DNA of 64,000 bases from Leucoraja ocellata (lineage: Eukaryota). Under the pieces are notes generated by a model. That model was not told where the DNA came from. It saw nothing but the letters and a program-made list of their open reading frames with translations, and ran no database searches. The stretch is from the NCBI GenBank assembly GCA_036785375.1, contig JAWMAR010000040.1, positions 806,001 through 870,000 on the forward strand. The letters run 5' to 3'. Every line of letters starts with the position of its first letter. Positions within the stretch are counted from its first letter, which is position 1. A program made the position numbers and the translations under genes. Of the stretch, positions 5,361-59,989 are shown one piece after another.

Positions 5361-5384
5361 AAGAACAAAAATTCAAGTCTAGTC

Positions 5385-6500
5385 AAGTCAAGAGACTTTA
5401 TTGTCTTGTGTCCCAGATAGGACAATGAAATTCTTGCTTGCTGCAGCACAACAGAATATTAGATTAGATTAGATTAGAATCTTTATTTGCCACGCAACCA
5501 GGGTTGGTGGTATTTGGGTTCGGTACATGATGGTACACTGCTTTAGTTACATACCACTAATAACACAGATCACCGTAATAAAGTGCATCCATACCACATC
5601 ACAAATCACAAATCTCACCAACAATACATAGTGCAAAAGAACAAACAAAGACCATAGACAAGACACTGTATACATCAAAAGTCATATTATTGTCTGATTA
5701 TTGGACGGAATTAAGAGTTCTTATTGCTGAGGGGAAGAAACTGTTTTTAAAACGAGTGGTTTTAGTAGCAAGTGACCTGAGGCGCCTCCCTGAAGGGAGA
5801 GACTGAAAAAGGTGATTTGCTGGATGGGACAACACCTTACTCTTCTTGGGCACCGGTATTATTGATGCCCTTTTAAAGCAGGTGGGAATCTCAGACCTCA
5901 GAAGTGAGAGGTTGAAAATGTCCGTAAAACTCCAGCCAGTTGGTCTGCGCAGGTTTTTAAACAATGACCGGGTATACCATCAGGTCCAGGCGCTTTTCGA
6001 GGGTTCACCCCTCCTGAAGGATCTTCTGACGTTGGCCTCTGTGACTGTGACTGAAATACCGTCATGGCGAATGGGGACTCGGGAAGGCACATCAGTGTTC
6101 TCCCTATCAAAGTGTGCGTAAAATGCTTTGAGCTCATCAGGGAGTGATGCTTCGCTGACATTTTAGCTGTCTCCTGATTTTACCTTGCAGGAGGTGATTG
6201 CATTCAAGCCCCGCCATAGTTGCCAAACGTCCGTCTCATCCTCCAGCTTGGAGCAGATGTCCCTTTTGGCCTTTTTGATAGCCTTACCAAGGTCGTATCT
6301 TGTAGACCTCTGATCTCCAGACCTGAATGCCTGGGATCTGGTCTTCAGAAGAATGCAGATTTCATGGTTCATCCAAGGCTTCTGGTTAGAAAACACTCAG
6401 AAGATTTTTTGTTGGGATGCAGTCCTCCACACATTTCTTTATGAAGAATGTAGCAACTGTGGCGTATTCATTCAGGTCCGTTGCCGAGTCCCTGATCCCT
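5385..6500 (-). mobile_element. Rex1/Babar-like LINE, internally deleted and chimeric with a second 3' end (5460-5835)
   Basis: [40 protein letters not shown], then LPSGRRLRSL..KTTRFKNSFFPSAIR. Two different microsatellite tails. Confidence 0.8.
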
Positions 6501-17859: not shown

Positions 17860-18500
17860 GCTGTTTTGGCCAGTGCGTGGAGTTGGAGCAGGTCAGCTCT
17901 GCCCGTCCTGCCTCTCTGACTGACGTCTACGAGCGCGGCCCCACCTTCTCTTTGGACTAAACTTTCTTCCTTCTTCTGCCGCTGAGTGCAGGTCGGTGCT
18001 CAGACGCAACTCAGAGTGTGTTTATTTGCCCTTCGTTTGAGTGATTATTTGAAACAAAATACGTTTGTTCTTTACCCCCTCGCCCTCCCGCTCAGAAAAT
18101 AAGTTGACAAAAGTCGCCGCCGCCGCGAATGAAGTTTCACGGAAGGCGAAATGTGGAATGAAAGTTAGTTTTGTTTCCTGGATGAGATGGCATTGAGTCG
18201 GTGGAAGACCCCGTTGTTGCTGCTGGGCAGCGTCTTGCTTCAGGTGAGGATACGGCGAATTGAGAGCTGATTACTGACGGTAGAGAGCGGGGGGAGGAGG
18301 AGGAGGAGGAGGAGGTGGGTGGGTGGGTATGAGAGCTGGCCGACCTGCGGAGGACTGACTGCCCTGTACACCTGTCGAGCTGTGGCTGACTCTCCTGCTC
18401 CAAGAAGCTGCGCTGCCGCTATGGACAGAGATAGCCCGGCTGAAGTCTTTTCTGACCCAGTGTTGGGTCCTTCCTGGGCCCTAACGCGGAGGGATTGTTA
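17860..18500 (+). promoter_or_regulatory. CpG-rich promoter / first-exon region of the host gene
   Basis: High CpG density in non-repeat sequence (gagcgcggcc, gtcgccgccgccgcg, gagcgggggg) around a signal-peptide exon, in an otherwise CpG-poor background. Boundaries approximate. Confidence 0.7.
18187..18243 (+). CDS. PTPRJ: Coding exon 1 (signal peptide MALSRWKTPLLLLGSVLLQ) of an R3 receptor-type tyrosine phosphatase, PTPRJ-like
   Basis: ATG in strong context (GAGATGG) after an in-frame TAG at 18166-18168. Basic n-region plus Leu-rich h-region. Donor CAG|GTGAGG, phase 0. Resembles the recalled end of human PTPRJ exon 1 (LRWALPLLLLLLRLGQ). Confidence 0.75.
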
Positions 18501-34735: not shown

Positions 34736-35748
34736 GCTATGGGTGAGTGGTGGAATATTGCATTGGGGGAATGGGGTTCAACGTGTCCCACTTGGTCGAA
34801 GTAATATTGTAAACTTCTGTTAGGTTACACCACAATCTCCAATGCTCTGAGAAAACCATCCAAGTTTGTCCAACCTCTGCTTGTGGTCACAGAGATCATT
34901 GTGAGCTTGCACTTCCAACAGTTTTCTAGTTTTATGTTCTTATGACGTATTTAGCGCAGATAAGAATCTAACTAATATTGCAGCTTGATTTAGATTGTCA
35001 TATTTCTAAAACACAGCAGTTATGGTTTCAAAAATTCGTATTGAACTTGTATCTTTTTGGAATATGTTTTTTATTTATTCACATTTTATCACAACACATT
35101 TTAAATTTGAAAGTGGTAGCTGGTGAGAAGTTTCACTTTCTATGTTCCAAGCACAATTTTCATGCTCTGGAAAAAAAAGATGATAAGATGGGTAAAAGGT
35201 TTAATTTTTGCTGTAATACAATTTTGCTTGAATGATATCAAGATGTGCTTTCCAGAATGTTGGCTTCACTTCACGTACCTCTTGCCATTGTGTATAGGCA
35301 CATCCTGCTCGGGGAAACAATACTTCATATAGTCCACTGATCTGTATTTCCAGCACTTTGCACTATTTAAGATTTTTAGCATCTACCTTTTTTCGATTTA
35401 CTACGTAGGAAAGACCTGGGACAGATTGCCAAAAGTGCTCATGTGGGGTCATGTTTTCCAATAAGCGAGTTCGGGATTCCGACTGCGCATGCCCAGGTCA
35501 TAGGTCACTAGCTATAAAACACTCTTTGCAACGGTTGTGCTGCATTGTGTGCAGGCTTGCGTTTCGTCCGTTGTCGGGGTCGGCTCCCCTCCGCTGCGGG
35601 TGCTGTTGGGCTGTCCCCGTCCCCTCCACAGTGTCCCGTCCCTGTCTGGAGGTGTCCGGGTTGGCCTTGGGCTAGCGGGGCCCGACAGCTTGGCTCTGCC
35701 TGTCCCGCCGGGTTGGCCCAGGCAGCCCGCTACCTCCACCCCCTACCC

Positions 35749-36207
35749 TCAGTCCGACACCGAGAACCTGCTGATGATGGGCAACCGCAAGGCGACTCGG
35801 AGTCGCTGCTGCTGGAGTCGTCCTGGTCGGAGACAGAGTGTGGATGGGCTCCTGCAGGCCATGTATGGCCAGGCGCCCACTGGAGCTGCTGTTGATTGTG
35901 GTGCTGGCAGCAGCAGCAGGCTCCTCCTCCTCTCTTGCCCAGCCCCAAGCCCAGAGTCCTGGCCAGCTCTAACTCCAGGTCGGGGCTGAAGGCCGCCAGC
36001 TGCGCGGCCCAATCTAGAGCCAGGACGGAGGAGGCTGAGCCCAGGCTGGCACTCTGGCGCAGGCGAGTCGGGGCCCTCGCTCGTCGGGCTTGTGGATGAA
36101 GTGGCAGCGGGTACCGTAGGGGCAGAAGCCGGTGGTGTGCAAGGTACCGCTTGTGCTTGGGGTAACGGCTGAGGCCATGGGCGAACTGGCACGTCACCAT
36201 AGCGGCC
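35749..36207 (-). pseudogene. ZFP36/tristetraprolin (TIS11)-family pseudogene: tandem CCCH zinc-finger remnant through the C-terminal CNOT1-binding motif
   Basis: Minus strand, across frameshifts: [50 protein letters not shown]...SVSDQDDSSSSDSESP/RLPIISRFSVSD-stop. Collinear with family motifs CQFAHG, RHPKYKTELC, GFCPYGxRCHFIH, LRQSxSF and RLPIFxRxSxSD/E. Several short deletions remove zinc-finger residues. Confidence 0.9.
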
Positions 36208-36226
36208 CATCGGGGCGCGGGTTCCT

Positions 36227-36324
36227 CTGGAGTTGGAGTGGGGTTGGGCTGGAGTTGGAGTGGGGTTGGGCTGGAGTTGGAGTGGGGTTGGGCTGGAGTT
36301 GGAGTGGGGTTGGGCTGGAGTTGG
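36227..36324 (+). repeat. 22-bp minisatellite, about 4.5 perfect copies of CTGGAGTTGGAGTGGGGTTGGG
   Basis: Units start at 36227, 36249, 36271, 36293 and 36315. Confidence 0.95.
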
Positions 36325-36564
36325 CGCTGGCTGTGGGTTCTGTGAGTCTGGGGCCGTTTGGGTTGGCGCTTCTCCGCGACGGGCCTGGGGGCTGGTGTCC
36401 CGTCGGTCCAGACATCTCGACGGGGAAGGGACCGGGGACGGTCCAGTGGCGGTTCGGCAGTGCCTGCGGGTCTCCCCCTCCCCGGCCCGGTCTCTTCCCT
36501 GCCCCCCCCAGCCAATCACGCGGCCTCCTGCTCCCGCCCGGTCTCCCCCCCCCCCCCCCCCCCC

Positions 36565-37845
36565 ACTCCCTGACGAGTGCAATGCGTTCTACACACACTT
36601 TGAAAGGGAGAACACTGATGTGCCTTTCTGAGCCCCCATTTGCCGTGATGGTATTTCAGTCACAGTCGCAGAGGCCGACGTCAGAAGATCCTTCAGAGGG
36701 GTGAACCCTCGGAAAGTGCCAGGACCTGATGGTATACCAGGTCGTGTTCTCAAAACCTGTGCAGACTGGCTGGAGTTTTTGCGGACATTTTCAACCTCTC
36801 ACTTCAGAGGTCTGAGGTTCTCACCTGCTTTAAAAAAAGTACCTCAACGACTATTGACCAGTGGCACTAATGTCTGTGGTGATGAAGTGCTTTGAGAGGT
36901 TTATTATGGCGTATATCAACTCCTACCTCGACTAGAACCTCGACCCACTGCAATTCGCTTACCCCCACAACAGGTCAACGGTGGATGAGATCTCACTGGC
37001 TCTCCATTCCGCTCTGGACCACTTAGATAATCAAAATTTGTATGTCAGGCTGTTGTTCATAGACTACAACTCGGCATTTAATACCATCATCCCCTCCAAG
37101 CTGGTTACTGAGCTCACGGATCTGGGTCTATGCACATCCCTCTGCAATTGGATCCTCGACTTCCTCATCCACAGTTCGCCGACGACACCACTGTTGTGGG
37201 ACAAATCACAGATGGTGATGAGTCAGGGTATGGAAGTGAGATTGACCGATTGACCAAATGGTGCCAGCACAACAACCTGGCTCTCAACACCAGCAAAACC
37301 AAGGAACTGATTATGGACTTTGGAAGGGGTAGGATAGGGACCCATACTCCTCTTTATATCAATGGTGGAAAGGGTCAAATTCAAATTCCTGGACGTGCAT
37401 ACTTCTGAAGATCTTTCCTGGTCCCAGCACACTGATGCAATTGCAAACAATTGCACACTGATGCAAATGCGTCTCTACTTCCTGAGAAGATTACGGAGAG
37501 TCGGTATCTCAAGGAGGACTCTCTCGAACTTCTACAGGTGCACAGTAGAGAGCATACTGACTGGCTGCATCGTGGCTTGGTTCGGCAACTTGAACGTCCA
37601 GGAGCGGAAAAGACTGCAGAAAGTTGTGGCCATTGCCCAGTCCATCACCGGCTCTGACCTCCCCACCATCGAAGGGATCTATCGCAATTATTTATTGTGT
37701 ATATATGGTCTATGGTATATAGACATACTGAACTTTTATCTCCCGTTCTGTATTATGTTTACATATTCTGTTGTGCTGCAGCAAGTAAGAATTTCATTGT
37801 CCTATCTGGGGCACATGACAATAAAACTCTCTTGACTCTTGACTT
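36565..37845 (+). mobile_element. Rex1/Babar-like LINE, 5'-truncated RT and 3' end
   Basis: [53 protein letters not shown]. Tail TGACAATAAA(CTCTTGA)n. Confidence 0.9.
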
Positions 37846-38792
37846 GGCTCTTGTAATTGGCTCTTTAATGCTGTAGCAGCTTACTAAGGCCAGCCTTCAA
37901 CTTCCACAGTGAGATGTTTATATGAATTCCAACTTTGAATAAATAAGGACCATTTCCACGAAAAACTTGATTGGCTAGACTCATCCGGATTGTTCATGAT
38001 GTCAAGGTGTCCGTATCCTGTTGAATAATTTCTTCAAACAATTCTCCCATTGCTGTTTTTACTTATATCCAGCCACCCTATGACTACAGCAGGCACAAAC
38101 TGTGAGTCAATTTGTTGCCCAACACCTATGCCTTCCCCATTTTTCCAACTTTGCTCAATTGGCCTCAGTGGTTGGAGGGAAAATAGGACACGGTTCCTTT
38201 TACTGATCTTTCCATAGACCAATGCTTAAAAAAGAAAACATTTGAACAGCGAGTTATGGTTTGATGCTCAATAACATTCAGATTCCAGTCTCGCTTATCA
38301 AAAATCTGATCAGGTACCAGAGTTGGGTGATACCTGTCAAACTGAGCAAAAGCAGTTTTTGTCCGTCAGCTAAGAGGAAATGGAAACAAATTAGAACAAA
38401 GCCTCCTTTTAAGTGAACTGCGTATACCGTGCGTGACATGAACCTATCCGTTTGTTGCAAGAATGCAGAGCACAGTTTTTAAATTCTAAATACTTCCTCA
38501 TTCCTATCAGCACTGCTGTTCGTCCACATATGTTAATTTAACATTCCATAAAGCTAACTACACCAGAACTAAATCTTGTTTAACAAGAAGATACGAAGTA
38601 ACATACAACATCATTGAACGCCCCCACAAAGCAATACAGACATGGACGGTATATAAAATAATATTTCTCCTCTGATCTCTCTCTCTGTACCCCTGTATAT
38701 ATCCTACCTCTGCATTGACCTTTCCAGTTGAGTAAAATCTTTGGGTTCTAACACAGCCCATCTTTGTCATTATCTTTTTTGATCTTATTTAT

Positions 38793-53371: not shown

Positions 53372-53390
53372 AGCATCATCACTTCTGAAT
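53372..53390 (+). CDS. PTPRJ: 19-nt coding micro-exon 2 (SIITSE + 1 nt), PTPRJ-like
   Basis: Branch-point-like TTCTAAT (53334-53340), long pyrimidine tract, acceptor TTTTAG and consensus donor GTAAGT. Phase 0 in, phase 1 out, which exactly bridges exon 1 and the FN3 exon. Confidence 0.75.
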
Positions 53391-56300: not shown

Positions 56301-57196
56301 GAAGTATGATAAATTTCCCCCCCAACCCGGTGAGATTAAATGAAGTACAAAATATGCAAGCACTCTGGATCCTGCCTCTGACCAAAATCTACTCCTGATC
56401 GTGAGTCTGACACACACTTGCCTTGCATTCTGGACCACGGGCCCAGATTATGGGCTAATGTGCCGGATGCTCGGAGTTTACTAGAGACAATTTGACTCTC
56501 TTCTGGTGAGTTTCAAATAACTGGAGACTCTGGACTTTGTGGATTGCTTCCCATATTACAGAAGCGAGCAAGCGCAGCCATTGAAGACACAATACACCAT
56601 CTCATCCAATATGCCAACACAGATTTATGGTGAAAAAGAATTTAAACCAATATCTCATACTCAATACCAAGCATCTTGAAAGGCATGATGTACTTCAAGC
56701 CTTTCTCATCAGGCATGTGGATGCATCATTTCTCATCTACTTATTTATGTTCTGCTTTCTTTTCTCCTGCACCATCACCCCTTTATTGTTATTTGATCTC
56801 TTACTTTCCACCCCTATGATTGACCTATTTAATCCCCCTCCTCTTAATCCTCCTGCCTGCTCCTCTCCCATGAATATTAGAATAAAAGCAGCAAATGCAA
56901 CTTTGCTGAAATACTGTACTCCAAATAAGCAGGTATCTTTTGTCATTTGTCACCAAGGTGTTGTGTGGACATGCAAGGGCTGTTGATCCTGAGCCACCAG
57001 CAATAAGTTGGAGATCAAGTTCCCATTTCATTCAACCCCTGTCTTGAGTGGGAATAGTTTATTTCAAAAGAATTGGAGGGAAGCCAAAATTAAAATGAGA
57101 GAGAAAGAGAGCGTCTGAGAAAAGATAAGCAACCTGCATAAATGAGAATCCGAAAGTGTTCCATGAATAAATAGCAAAAGGACAGTGCATGGATTT

Positions 57197-59908
57197 CAAG
57201 AGTTCAAGAGAGTTTTATTGTCATGTGTCCCTGATAGGACAATGACATTTTTGCTTTGCTTTAGCACACCAGAACATAGTAGGCACTAATACTGAACAGA
57301 TCAGTGTGTCCATATACCATTGCATAAATATATACATACATGAATAATTAAACTGATAAAGTGCAAATAAACAGATTATTGGCTATTAATGTTCAGAGTT
57401 TTGTCCGAGCTGACTTTAATAGCCTGATGGCTGTGGGGAAGAAGCTGGTTCCTGAACCTGGTCGTTGCAATCTTCAGGCTCCTGTACCTTCTACCTAAAG
57501 ATAGTGGGGAGATGAGTGTGTAGCCAGGATGGTGTGGGTCCTTGATGATGCTGCCAGCCTTTTTGAGGCAGCGACTGTGATAGATCCCCTCGCTGGATGG
57601 GAGGTCGGACCCAATGATGGACTGGGCAGTGTTTACTACTTTTTGTAGTCTTTTCCGCTCCAGGACGCTCATGTTTCCGAACCAAGCCACGATGCAATCT
57701 GTCAGCATACTCTCTACTGTGCACCTGTAGAGGTTAGAGAGAGTCCTCCTTGAAATACCGACTCTCCGTAATCTTCTCAAGAAATAGAGGCGCTGATGTG
57801 CTTTCTTTATGATTGCATCACTGTTCTCGGACCAGGAAAGATCTTCAGAGATATGCACGCCCAGGAATTTAAAGCTCTTGATCCTTTCCCCCATCGACCC
57901 ATTGATATAAACGGGACTGTGGGCCCCCATCCTCTCCCTTCCAAAGTCCACAATCAGTTCCTTGGTATTGCTGGTGTTGAGGGCCAGGTTATGTGCTGGC
58001 ACCATTTGGTCGGTCGATCTCGCTTCTGTACTCTGACTCGTCCCCATCAGTTATATGTCCCACAATGGTGGTATCGTCAGCGAACTTGATGATGGAGTTT
58101 GCACTATGACCGGCTACGCAGTCATGAGTATAGAGTGAGTACAGCAGGGGGCTAAGCACGCAGCCTAGAGGTGCTCCCGTACTGATTGTTATCGAGGCGG
58201 ACACATTTCCACCAATACGTACTGACTGTGGTCTGTGAATGAGGAAGTCGAGGATCCAATTTCAGAGAGAGTTTGTTAACCAGAGGGGATGATTGTATTA
58301 AATGCCGAGCTGTAATCAATGAATAACTGCCTGACATATGAGTTTTTGTTGTCCAAGTGGTCCAGAGCGGAGTGGAGAGCCAGCGAGATCGCATCCACTG
58401 TTGATCTGTTGTGGCGGTAAGCGAACTGCAGAGGGTCCAGGTTTTTGTCGAGGTAGGAGTTGATTTGCGCCATGATCAACCTCTCAAAGCACTTCATCAC
58501 CACAGACGTTAGTGCCACTGGTCGATAGTCATTGAGGCACGTCACCTTGCTCTTCTTGGGCACCAGTATAATTGATGCCCTTATAAAGCAGATGGGAACC
58601 TCAGAAGTGAGAGGTTGAAAATGTCCGTAAAAACTCCAGCCAGTTGGTCTGCACAGGTTTTTAAAACACGCCCGGGTATGCCATCAGGTCCAGGCGCTTT
58701 TCGAGGGTTCACCCCTCTGAAGGATTTTCTGACGTCGGCCTCTGTGACTGTGACTGAAATACCATCACAGCAATGGGAGCTTGAGAAGTCACATCAGTGT
58801 TCTCCCTGTGCGTAAAACGCATTGAGCTCGTCAGGGAGTGATGGTTCGCCGATATTCGAGCTGCCTCCTGATCTCGCCTTGTAGGAGGTGATTGCATTCA
58901 AGCCCTGCCACAGCTGACGAACATCTGTCTCATCCTCCAGTTTGGAGCAGAAGGCCCTTTTGGCCTTTTTGATGGCCTTACCAAGGTCGTATCTGGACTT
59001 CTTGTAGACCTCTGTATCATCAGACATGAATGCCTGGTGTCTGGTCTTCAGAAGAGTGCGGATCTCAAAGTTCATCCAAAGCTTCTGATTGGGAAACACT
59101 TGGAAGGTTTTTGTAGGGATGCAGTCTTCCACACATTTCTTTATGAAGTCTGTAATAAACTGTGACGTATTTGTTCAGGTTTGTTGCCGACTCCCTGAAC
59201 ATTGCCCAGTCTACAGACTCCAAACAGTCCTGCAGTTGTTCCTCTGCCCCCTCTGCCCCCTCCTCCCCCCCCCCCCCCTCCCCCCCCCCCCCCCACCGAC
59301 CAGCTCTGTGCAGTCCTCACCTTGGGGGGGGGTGCGCTCTTCAATTGCTGCCTGTAGGCAGGAAGAATCAGCCTACAGTATGGTCGGTATTTACCAAAGT
59401 GAGGGCGAGTGATAGAGGATAAGAAGGAACTGCAGATGCTGGAAAGTCAAAGGTAGACAAAAGTGCTGGAGAAACTCAGCGGGTGATTGTGGTGTAGCAG
59501 TGATCGAGGGTGTTGGTCCTCTGGTGCAGCAGGAGACATGTTGGTGGAAGTTTGGGAATGATTTCTTCAGGTTCGCTTTATTGAAGTCCCCAGCTATGGT
59601 GGTGAACGCCTCGGGGTAAGACGTTTGGTGCTTGTTGACCAAGGCGTGCAACTCCTCCAGTGCCAGACGGACGTCTGCCTGGGGTGGGATGTAGACCGCG
59701 GTCAGGATGATGGAGGTGAATTCCCTTGGGAGGTAGAAGGGGCGGCACTTCACCGCCAGATGTTCGCGGTGTGGAGAGCAGGAGTTGGACAGAACTGTCA
59801 TGTCTGAGCACCACGCAGAGTTGACCATGAGGCAGACGCCCACTCCTCTCCCGTTCCCTGATGCCAGTGTGCGATCCATACGGTGGATGGAGAACCCTTC
59901 AGGCTGGA
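57197..59908 (-). mobile_element. Rex1/Babar-like LINE, endonuclease through 3' end, frameshifted
   Basis: APE motifs (GVCLMVN, TAVYIPP, IAGDFN) and RT motifs ([25 protein letters not shown]). Tail (CTCTTGAA)n. Confidence 0.92.
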
Positions 59909-59989
59909 TCCATTTAGCACAAAAATGGGAGCTTGCACATTAATGCTAAAGGGCAGTGTTATGGTAGTAAATGCATACAAAGCACTTAT

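Follow-up and report, generated by a model that had tools for sequence, protein, structure and literature searches.

How does the 3' part of a ZFP36/tristetraprolin-family gene, broken over three reading frames, come to lie antisense in the first intron of a PTP-eta-like gene in the skate Leucoraja ocellata? We analysed a 64,000-nucleotide stretch of genomic DNA around it (contig JAWMAR010000040.1, positions 806,001 to 870,000; hereafter the window, whose own coordinates are used throughout). We are fairly confident that the ZFP36 fragment is the cargo of an old, non-autonomous, tail-less mobile element that is multicopy in skates.

35749..36204, minus strand: captured ZFP36-family coding fragment, with the end of finger 1, the linker, finger 2, the C-terminal region, and the NOT1-binding terminus and stop

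The minus strand of the window from 36204 to 35749 corresponds to the 3' 60% of a ZFP36-family gene. A preliminary description of this locus, made from the letters alone, had read it as a pseudogene split over three minus-strand frames, and six-frame translation recovers all the pieces that it named, in three frames of that strand. A frameshift-aware alignment against Rhinoraja XP_078287002 runs collinearly from 36204 (R119) to the stop at 35751-35749, with 119 of 143 aligned residues identical (83%) and nine gaps, six of them frame-shifting, at about 36192, 36174 (18 nt), 36148 (11 nt), 36086, 36066, 35901, 35866, 35838 and 35788 (16 nt). Chance resemblance can be dismissed, as searches with the finger-2 piece find the ZFP36L2 structure 1RGO (E 1e-11) and the Pfam family zf-CCCH (E 1.2e-6); a main-frame protein search returned two of 747 candidates, both skate-type proteins. 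The LRQSAS piece is what we take to be a 14-3-3-type site. As a working gene the fragment fails twice over: there are no two complete CCCH fingers of fixed spacing, and no in-frame C-terminal NOT1-binding domain of the kind defined in the available text of PMC12350847. Finger 1 lacks C109 and C118, the linker has lost six residues, and an 11-nt deletion has removed C147, the first cysteine of finger 2, such that neither finger is complete. The NOT1-binding terminus is a remnant, identical at 10 of 12 positions but altered by F282I and I285F and lying behind six frameshifts; these two changes, together with H139Y, Y142H and G267D, affect residues invariant across 14 chondrichthyan proteins. The best explanation is that the fragment is passenger DNA, unable to encode an RNA-binding tandem zinc finger. 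As the preliminary description had it, neither a poly(A) tail nor an AU-rich 3' UTR follows the stop in the window sequence, and a processed pseudogene is further disfavoured by the lack of a target-site duplication around the gene copy and of a common tail among other copies.

Descent from the ZFP36/TIS11 family is borne out by the 1RGO match and by the placement of the fragment in the skate clade of a compact chondrichthyan paralogue. That placement has support of 98/96 in a tree of 38 rows and of 95/95 in a tree of 27 rows, from which Protopterus and several redundant rows were left out and in which the fragment, at the tip of a long branch, is joined to Amblyraja and Leucoraja (96/90). The family phylogeny, which the preliminary description had proposed to build for chondrichthyans, thus identifies the parent as the skate copy of this paralogue. 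The paralogue lies outside the ZFP36L1/L2 clade, whose rows stand apart at 99/100 in the 38-row and 94/90 in the 27-row tree. The earlier impression that the fragment is closer to TTP than to ZFP36L1/L2 therefore survives in its second half; grouping with named ZFP36 is weak (deep branches 73/76 in the 27-row tree), the one named anchor being the long-branched alligator ZFP36, and a parent closer to TTP is plausible. PF04553 is absent from the domain listing of 13 chondrichthyan rows, and database names for the compact paralogue vary. Its representatives (XP_078287002, XP_032870229, XP_055519735) stand for the direct parent, with 80-83% identity over 143 residues and skate-specific motifs; compared with them the copy is without residues 1-118 (the 5' 40% of the gene), without both complete fingers, and carries six frameshifts. 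At one linker position some other copies of the fragment share the alanine of Rhinoraja and rays, as against the serine of Amblyraja and Leucoraja, which suggests that capture may have occurred near the base of skates. Two side observations belong here. In the trees, proteins of coelacanth, gar, sturgeon, turtle and lizard that bear the name 'ZFP36L1/L2-like' sit outside the L1/L2 clade and do not join alligator ZFP36 either, a hint of a possible fourth vertebrate paralogue that is inconsistently named. In the alignment, the Amblyraja model XP_032870229 (our P0004) begins with a 72-residue N-terminal extension that the 13 other proteins lack; its start was probably called too far upstream.

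The host gene, on the plus strand, matches a Narcine PTP-eta-like protein, and three of its coding exons were located in the window:

18187..18243, plus strand: coding exon 1 of the PTP-eta-like host gene, signal peptide
53372..53390, plus strand: micro-exon 2 of 19 nt, phase 0 to 1, which closes intron 1; the best of the candidates scored
62597..62863, plus strand: exon 3, a fibronectin type III (FN3) repeat

The micro-exon has canonical splice sites. Because exons 1 and 2 are on the plus strand and flank the fragment, it lies antisense in intron 1, as had been described.

What carried it there is seen when the locus is compared with other copies. Contigs of four sequencing runs, X1, X3, X6 and X10 (organisms A, B, C and E), were aligned to 34800-36226 at 80% likeness; 20 of the 24 listed runs contain part of 35100-36226, and no RNA run is listed among them, although three runs with shares of 0.04-0.06 may be RNA. 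Details of single contigs come from the matches listed (32 pieces, 12 indel rows, 15 joints and 24 loose ends), beyond which there are a further 13,401 pieces, 59 indel rows, 113 joints and 1,176 loose ends. The long listed pieces are biased to copies like the window copy, and summed contig depth is not copy number and gives the order of magnitude only. The flank at 34896-35423 is single-copy (depth 25.8, 8.8, 33.3 and 29.5 in the four runs), and from 35460 depth goes up by two to four orders of magnitude. Over seven bins of the ZFP36 part (35760-36095) the median is 239, 135, 159 and 155 times flank depth, with a range of 19-406, and direct counts at 36165 give 34, 14, 30 and 39 contigs; as an order of magnitude, we would put the element at roughly 100-250 dispersed sites. 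At 35459-35461, 247, 177, 336 and 350 contigs exit into unrelated AT-rich flanks whose consensus agreement is 0.34-0.39, as against 0.62-0.66 for the common continuations of a control repeat fragment at 34849-34882. Two listed contigs (records 2 and 26) carry 1.0 and 2.5 kb of different flank, single-copy in each. A sharp end with unrelated AT-rich flanks marks a dispersed element with a defined, tail-less end, and the many copies, common end and unrelated flanks are together what a dispersed mobile element shows. The control fragment is itself a 34-bp piece of another high-copy repeat, at about 1,900-2,600x.

The ZFP36 fragment is only the middle part of this larger multicopy element, whose parts are as follows:

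35460..35520, no strand assigned: left terminus, with the sharp end at 35459-35461, a T-run just outside and an imperfect hairpin at 35465-35489
35521..35748, no strand assigned: left arm, GC-rich and multicopy, recognised by its depth and by joints to the ZFP36 part
36205..36210, minus strand: capture junction, where ATG-GGC from the element reads in frame into the start of the ZFP36 codons; the piece reads MGRYGD
36227..36324, no strand assigned: 22-bp tandem repeat in the right arm, 4.5 copies, 100% matches
36325..36563, no strand assigned: remainder of the right arm, rich in GC and containing a C run as well as CCAAT- and GC-box-like motifs
36564..37846, plus strand: LINE, 5'-truncated and internally deleted (PF00078, E 7e-7)
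38241..38360, no strand assigned: candidate right end, with partial copies of the left motif at 38248-38255 (direct) and 38288-38299 (inverted), stem-loops, and a T-run at 38356

The left arm has a depth of about 70-950x and may include the parent's proximal 3' UTR; joints 35584-35868 and 35586-36090 connect it to the ZFP36 part in other copies. Records 7, 8 and 32 align across the ATG junction, so other copies have the same build. The preliminary description had raised transposon capture as one example of how the fragment could have been copied, with a single copy as the finding that would speak against it; the fragment is multicopy, its left end is sharp and dispersed, and the capture junction is common to copies. 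The terminal bin, at 3,954-7,506x, is far above the body, which suggests that the ZFP36 carriers are a subset of a larger element family. No second copy of the element lies within the 64-kb window, as expected at the estimated copy number. The LINE, which we take to be Rex1/Babar-like, may be an insertion within the element or its direct neighbour; its family has three decayed copies in the window (36564-37846, 5374-6495 and 57196-59939), with short internal deletions in each.

Both arms have promoter-like motifs: on the left, at 35484-35507, a perfect AGGTCA-N-AGGTCA direct repeat and a GCGCATGC motif, and on the right, at 36512-36540, CCAAT and GC-box-like motifs. DR1, NRF1 and GC box are the labels that we presume to apply to them. 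A TATA-like motif at 35513-35519 was rejected as the element's promoter, since the loose-end consensus of other copies differs there, and the right arm (36211-36563) was rejected as the missing 5' coding part, its alignment with the parent N-terminus being noise. Rfam gave no matches at E up to 1 in 35300-38000. The terminal 21-mer had no matches in viral contigs, and its one metagenome match is due to chance, as only the 21-mer aligns. No further recognisable element-derived ORF was found among the matches listed (the best 150 of 8,322).

Two other ways of multiplying a pseudogene have to be weighed against these data. The better of them, in our view still an unlikely one, is a retroposon mobilised by a LINE (SINE-like or a chimeric transcript) whose 3' end, read on the minus strand, would be 35460, or a template-switch chimera with the adjacent LINE. 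The ZFP36 sense strand is indeed the minus strand, depth climbs toward 35460 with a terminal bin of 4,000-7,500x that would fit 5' truncation, a 5'-truncated LINE adjoins at 36564, and an RNA route is possible inasmuch as other vertebrates have the captured part in a single exon, according to the available text of PMC3546996. But the end is fixed to within three bases with no common tail beyond it (the flank agreement given above), body depth is flat without a gradient, and the two other LINE copies in the window have no such head. Segmental duplication or satellite amplification of one pseudogene, without transposition, is very unlikely: a lineage-specific tandem array would give the depth pattern at 36096-36191 described below, and there is a tandem repeat in the right arm, but hundreds of unrelated flanks meet at one sharp end, some of them 1-2.5 kb long and single-copy, and such amplification explains the extra peak alone, not the family.

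That peak deserves separate attention. The finger-coding bins at 36096-36191 reach 7,912x in organism A (X1) and 12,358x in B (X3), against 1,378x in C (X6) and 327x in E (X10), and because depth is so much higher in A and B we recognise a second, lineage-specific amplification of about 100 bp of finger-coding sequence, as a satellite, a short derivative or an array copy. In five X3 contigs the minus-strand arm 36237-36214, matched by eye at 22 of 24 letters, continues into the plus strand at 36114, a joint that implies inversion of the segment 36114-36213 with the break at a common CCG; X1 and X6 have another opposite-strand joint, at 36080/36142. A Logan ORF of 180 aa (P0007) starts at the same MG junction and has an intact finger 2 and NOT1 tail. 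Beyond its first residues it is 97% identical to the parent-type P0008, and the simplest reading of the two sequences is that it is probably an assembly chimera. It is tempting to speculate that the 100-bp segment, taken from a single-copy gene, is in some skates a repeat of about 10,000 copies, some of them inverted, and that the family acts on its parent, through antisense or small RNAs or through a surviving early copy that makes the 180-aa one-finger protein, and were this so, a protein begun at the element's ATG that keeps the CCR4-NOT-binding tail would be a possible dominant-negative or decoy; we regard the idea as a long shot. Exaptation proper, in which this copy or its family yields a regulatory antisense or small RNA or a truncated CCR4-NOT-binding protein, has in our estimate very little chance of being the explanation of the locus. 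Host pre-mRNA would carry antisense ZFP36 sequence, given the position of the fragment in the intron, and the element supplies an in-frame ATG from which the open ORF P0007 runs. Against this stand the six frameshifts, the want of a complete finger and the altered NOT1-binding terminus of the window copy, its protein-level identity of just 80-83% to skate parents, and the near identity of P0007 to P0008, as a chimera would have it.

To return to the captured fragment as cargo, the deletions tell something of its history. The 11-nt deletion is present in records 7, 8, 16, 31 and 32 (organisms A, C and E), within four letters of reference length, and the 18-nt deletion is also found, among the matches listed, in records 7, 8 and 32. 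Copies that span the deletions differ by 12-18% from the window copy, record 8 being gapless over 147 letters. Because they recur, both large deletions are real and older than the main amplification, and since one of them costs a finger-2 cysteine, coding capacity was gone before the master was amplified. Part of the 18-nt segment survives in four contigs from three runs; an earlier, fuller form therefore existed. As many as 10 contigs in a run restore letters at 36192, 36079, 36066/36068, 35866 and 35838. The suggestion that an already damaged fragment had been copied is thus right for the large 18-nt and 11-nt deletions and wrong for five small gaps that are filled elsewhere, and the same split holds for whether other copies share the deletions; their flanks are unrelated. 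As to confirming the indels from reads, the two large deletions occur in independent contigs, while the private small ones, in a ZFP36 part over which no long 99% contig lies, are as the assembly gives them. The neighbouring LINE is also rich in short deletions relative to a second copy in the window, and decay of this kind is therefore ordinary here. An intact nested gene corrupted by assembly errors has virtually no chance of being the answer: there are N gaps in the window and no long identical contig covers the ZFP36 part, but three organisms show the large deletions in contigs of their own, independent of one another, the gene's 5' 40% is missing, the flank matches X1 at 603 of 604 letters, and skates have intact parent genes.

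The preliminary description took the copy to be recent, or else an unmethylated island, on account of abundant CpG. Neither reading is supported. In X1, X6 and X10 the flank is connected with the element by single-copy contigs that reach 38, 44 and 59 letters inside and differ from the window at 1 of 604, 17 of 704 and 37 of 719 letters, respectively; the X3 bridge has only 19 letters inside the element, too few to count. Because the site is common to organisms that differ by 2.4% and 5.1% in the flank, the insertion predates a split with about 5% intronic divergence, and most aligned contigs are less than 95% alike to the window, which argues against a recent copy. The orthologous insertions would also hold the ZFP36 part. 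For Okamejei and Amblyraja a divergence of about 33.9 Mya is given in the available text of PMC12361510. CpG observed/expected is 0.57 in the fragment, near the 0.51 of the adjacent LINE and the 0.49 of another, and 0.60-0.88 in four other repeats of the window, so that CpG is not unusually abundant; with C>T and G>A prevailing among the differences between copies, there is no call for an unmethylated island. In organism B (record 18, aligned at 35339-35478), a single-copy contig has 19 element letters followed by 524 unlike letters, and the orthologous copy seems to have been deleted or interrupted there.

Which kind of element this is can be said less firmly. Given a mobile element, Helentron/HLE2 is our best guess, tentatively held and somewhat short of an even chance; a cut-and-paste element with terminal inverted repeats (TIRs) is a possible but less probable choice, and another superfamily is a little less probable again. 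The optional central tandem repeat of Helentrons and HINEs is present (22 bp x 4.5), and the flank consensus is T/A-rich. On the side of a cut-and-paste element, TA is the majority ending of the 35459 class of flanks in three of the four runs, and Tc1/mariner elements are described as expanded in skates in the available text of PMC12361510. In that of PMC4067079 and PMC11417382, the HINE layout has a 3' subTIR 38-60 bp from the end, a stem-loop and a T-rich target. At the 5' end of a Helentron or HINE a subTIR would stand beside a T-run, with an inverted repeat 3-22 bp off, for which the T-run and hairpin of the left terminus are candidates. The segment 38288-38299 is the best inverted match in the 64 kb to left-end queries of 30 and 38 nt, and not the best for those of 20, 40 (tied) or 60 nt; this candidate right-end match consists of nine exact bases and a weak extension. 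A T-run lies 57 bp beyond it with stem-loops between, which 10 of 300 shuffles equal in stability, with a chance by position of about 5%; at the left end, 17 of 300 shuffles are as stable as the hairpin at 35465-35489. No target-site duplication was found around the candidate ends, by eye or among repeats of at least 10 nt, in a copy that is old and whose right end is a candidate. The left end and the candidate right end would fit the HINE layout, suggestively, with the LINE as a nested insertion.

We propose that a class II-like non-autonomous element of the skate lineage took up the 3' portion of a compact chondrichthyan ZFP36-family gene, from its only coding exon, presumably by template switching or end bypass in a class II mechanism. 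An early form would have kept more of the linker, and in a later master deletions of 18 nt and 11 nt would have taken away, among other letters, the first cysteine of finger 2. By the time the four sampled organisms separated, this master may have reached about 100-250 dispersed sites; one of its copies would have inserted antisense into intron 1 of the PTP-eta-like gene and decayed neutrally thereafter.

If this is so, the next question is why such a capture matters. High-copy capture of gene fragments, best documented among vertebrates in bats and frogs, would extend to cartilaginous fishes, at a copy level well above that of reported multicopy Pack-TIRs. The donor is a key regulator of inflammation and mRNA decay, and the family offers a datable test of the 'genomic conflict' idea, discussed in the available text of PMC12001565, by which a donor gene becomes open to transposon silencing through its captured fragments. 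There are practical consequences too: de novo skate repeat libraries may mask the real ZFP36-family gene, short-read assemblies may yield chimeric ZFP36 ORFs such as P0007, and insertions common to species are clean phylogenetic markers for skates. In the literature as available to us, neither a ZFP36-carrying element nor gene capture in skates is described, and the accessible text of the skate genome preprint 10.1101/2025.06.08.657570 mentions neither; repeat libraries, Repbase or Dfam may already contain the family without a name.

The comparisons that follow are with the published systems as given in the available portions of each source. The Helitron captures of vesper bats (PMC4224331) and Xenopus laevis (PMC12001565) likewise place host coding fragments on non-autonomous elements, in tens to about 1,000 copies that were mostly fixed before species split and are mostly neutral: 12,382 bat elements carry host sequence (PMC4224331), one gene reaching about 1,000 copies (as cited in PMC12001565), and in Xenopus there are up to 17 copies (PMC12001565). 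Those elements, however, are canonical Helitron1 with TC and CTRR ends, which are not seen at the confirmed left end here, and they favour 5' gene parts, whereas the skate fragment is a 3' part in a cartilaginous-fish host. The Helentron-associated HINE/DINE-1 elements and HLE2 (PMC4067079, PMC11417382) have T-rich targets without target-site duplication, a short terminal motif with a hairpin beside it, and a central tandem repeat, to which the skate element offers the tandem repeat and candidates for the rest. Empty sites at TT and an autonomous RepHel partner with the same ends belong to that group too, whereas the skate element is known from its left end, its right end being a candidate. 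Animal Pack-TIRs (PMC8277862; the word 'shark' is missing from its main text) resemble it as DNA-type elements with an internal host-gene fragment whose parent lies elsewhere, but multicopy examples are rare among them (four, 1.4%, with three copies in the frog example) against an estimated at least 100 copies here, and the skate element's TIR pair and target-site duplication are candidates at most. The texim genes on fish Helitrons (PMC4021074) are a case from fishes in which a rolling-circle element took up a gene and multiplied it; they are intact, few and testis-expressed, whereas the skate cargo is partial and broken. Within the ZFP36 family itself, Zfp36l3 of rodents and zfp36l4 of Xenopus, proposed to be retrogenes (PMC3546996), are also extra copies made through mobile-element machinery, but they are single functional genes, and the skate fragment is high-copy and dead. 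Gene capture by mobile elements is thus a known kind of phenomenon, to which the skate ZFP36 case would add the cartilaginous fishes.
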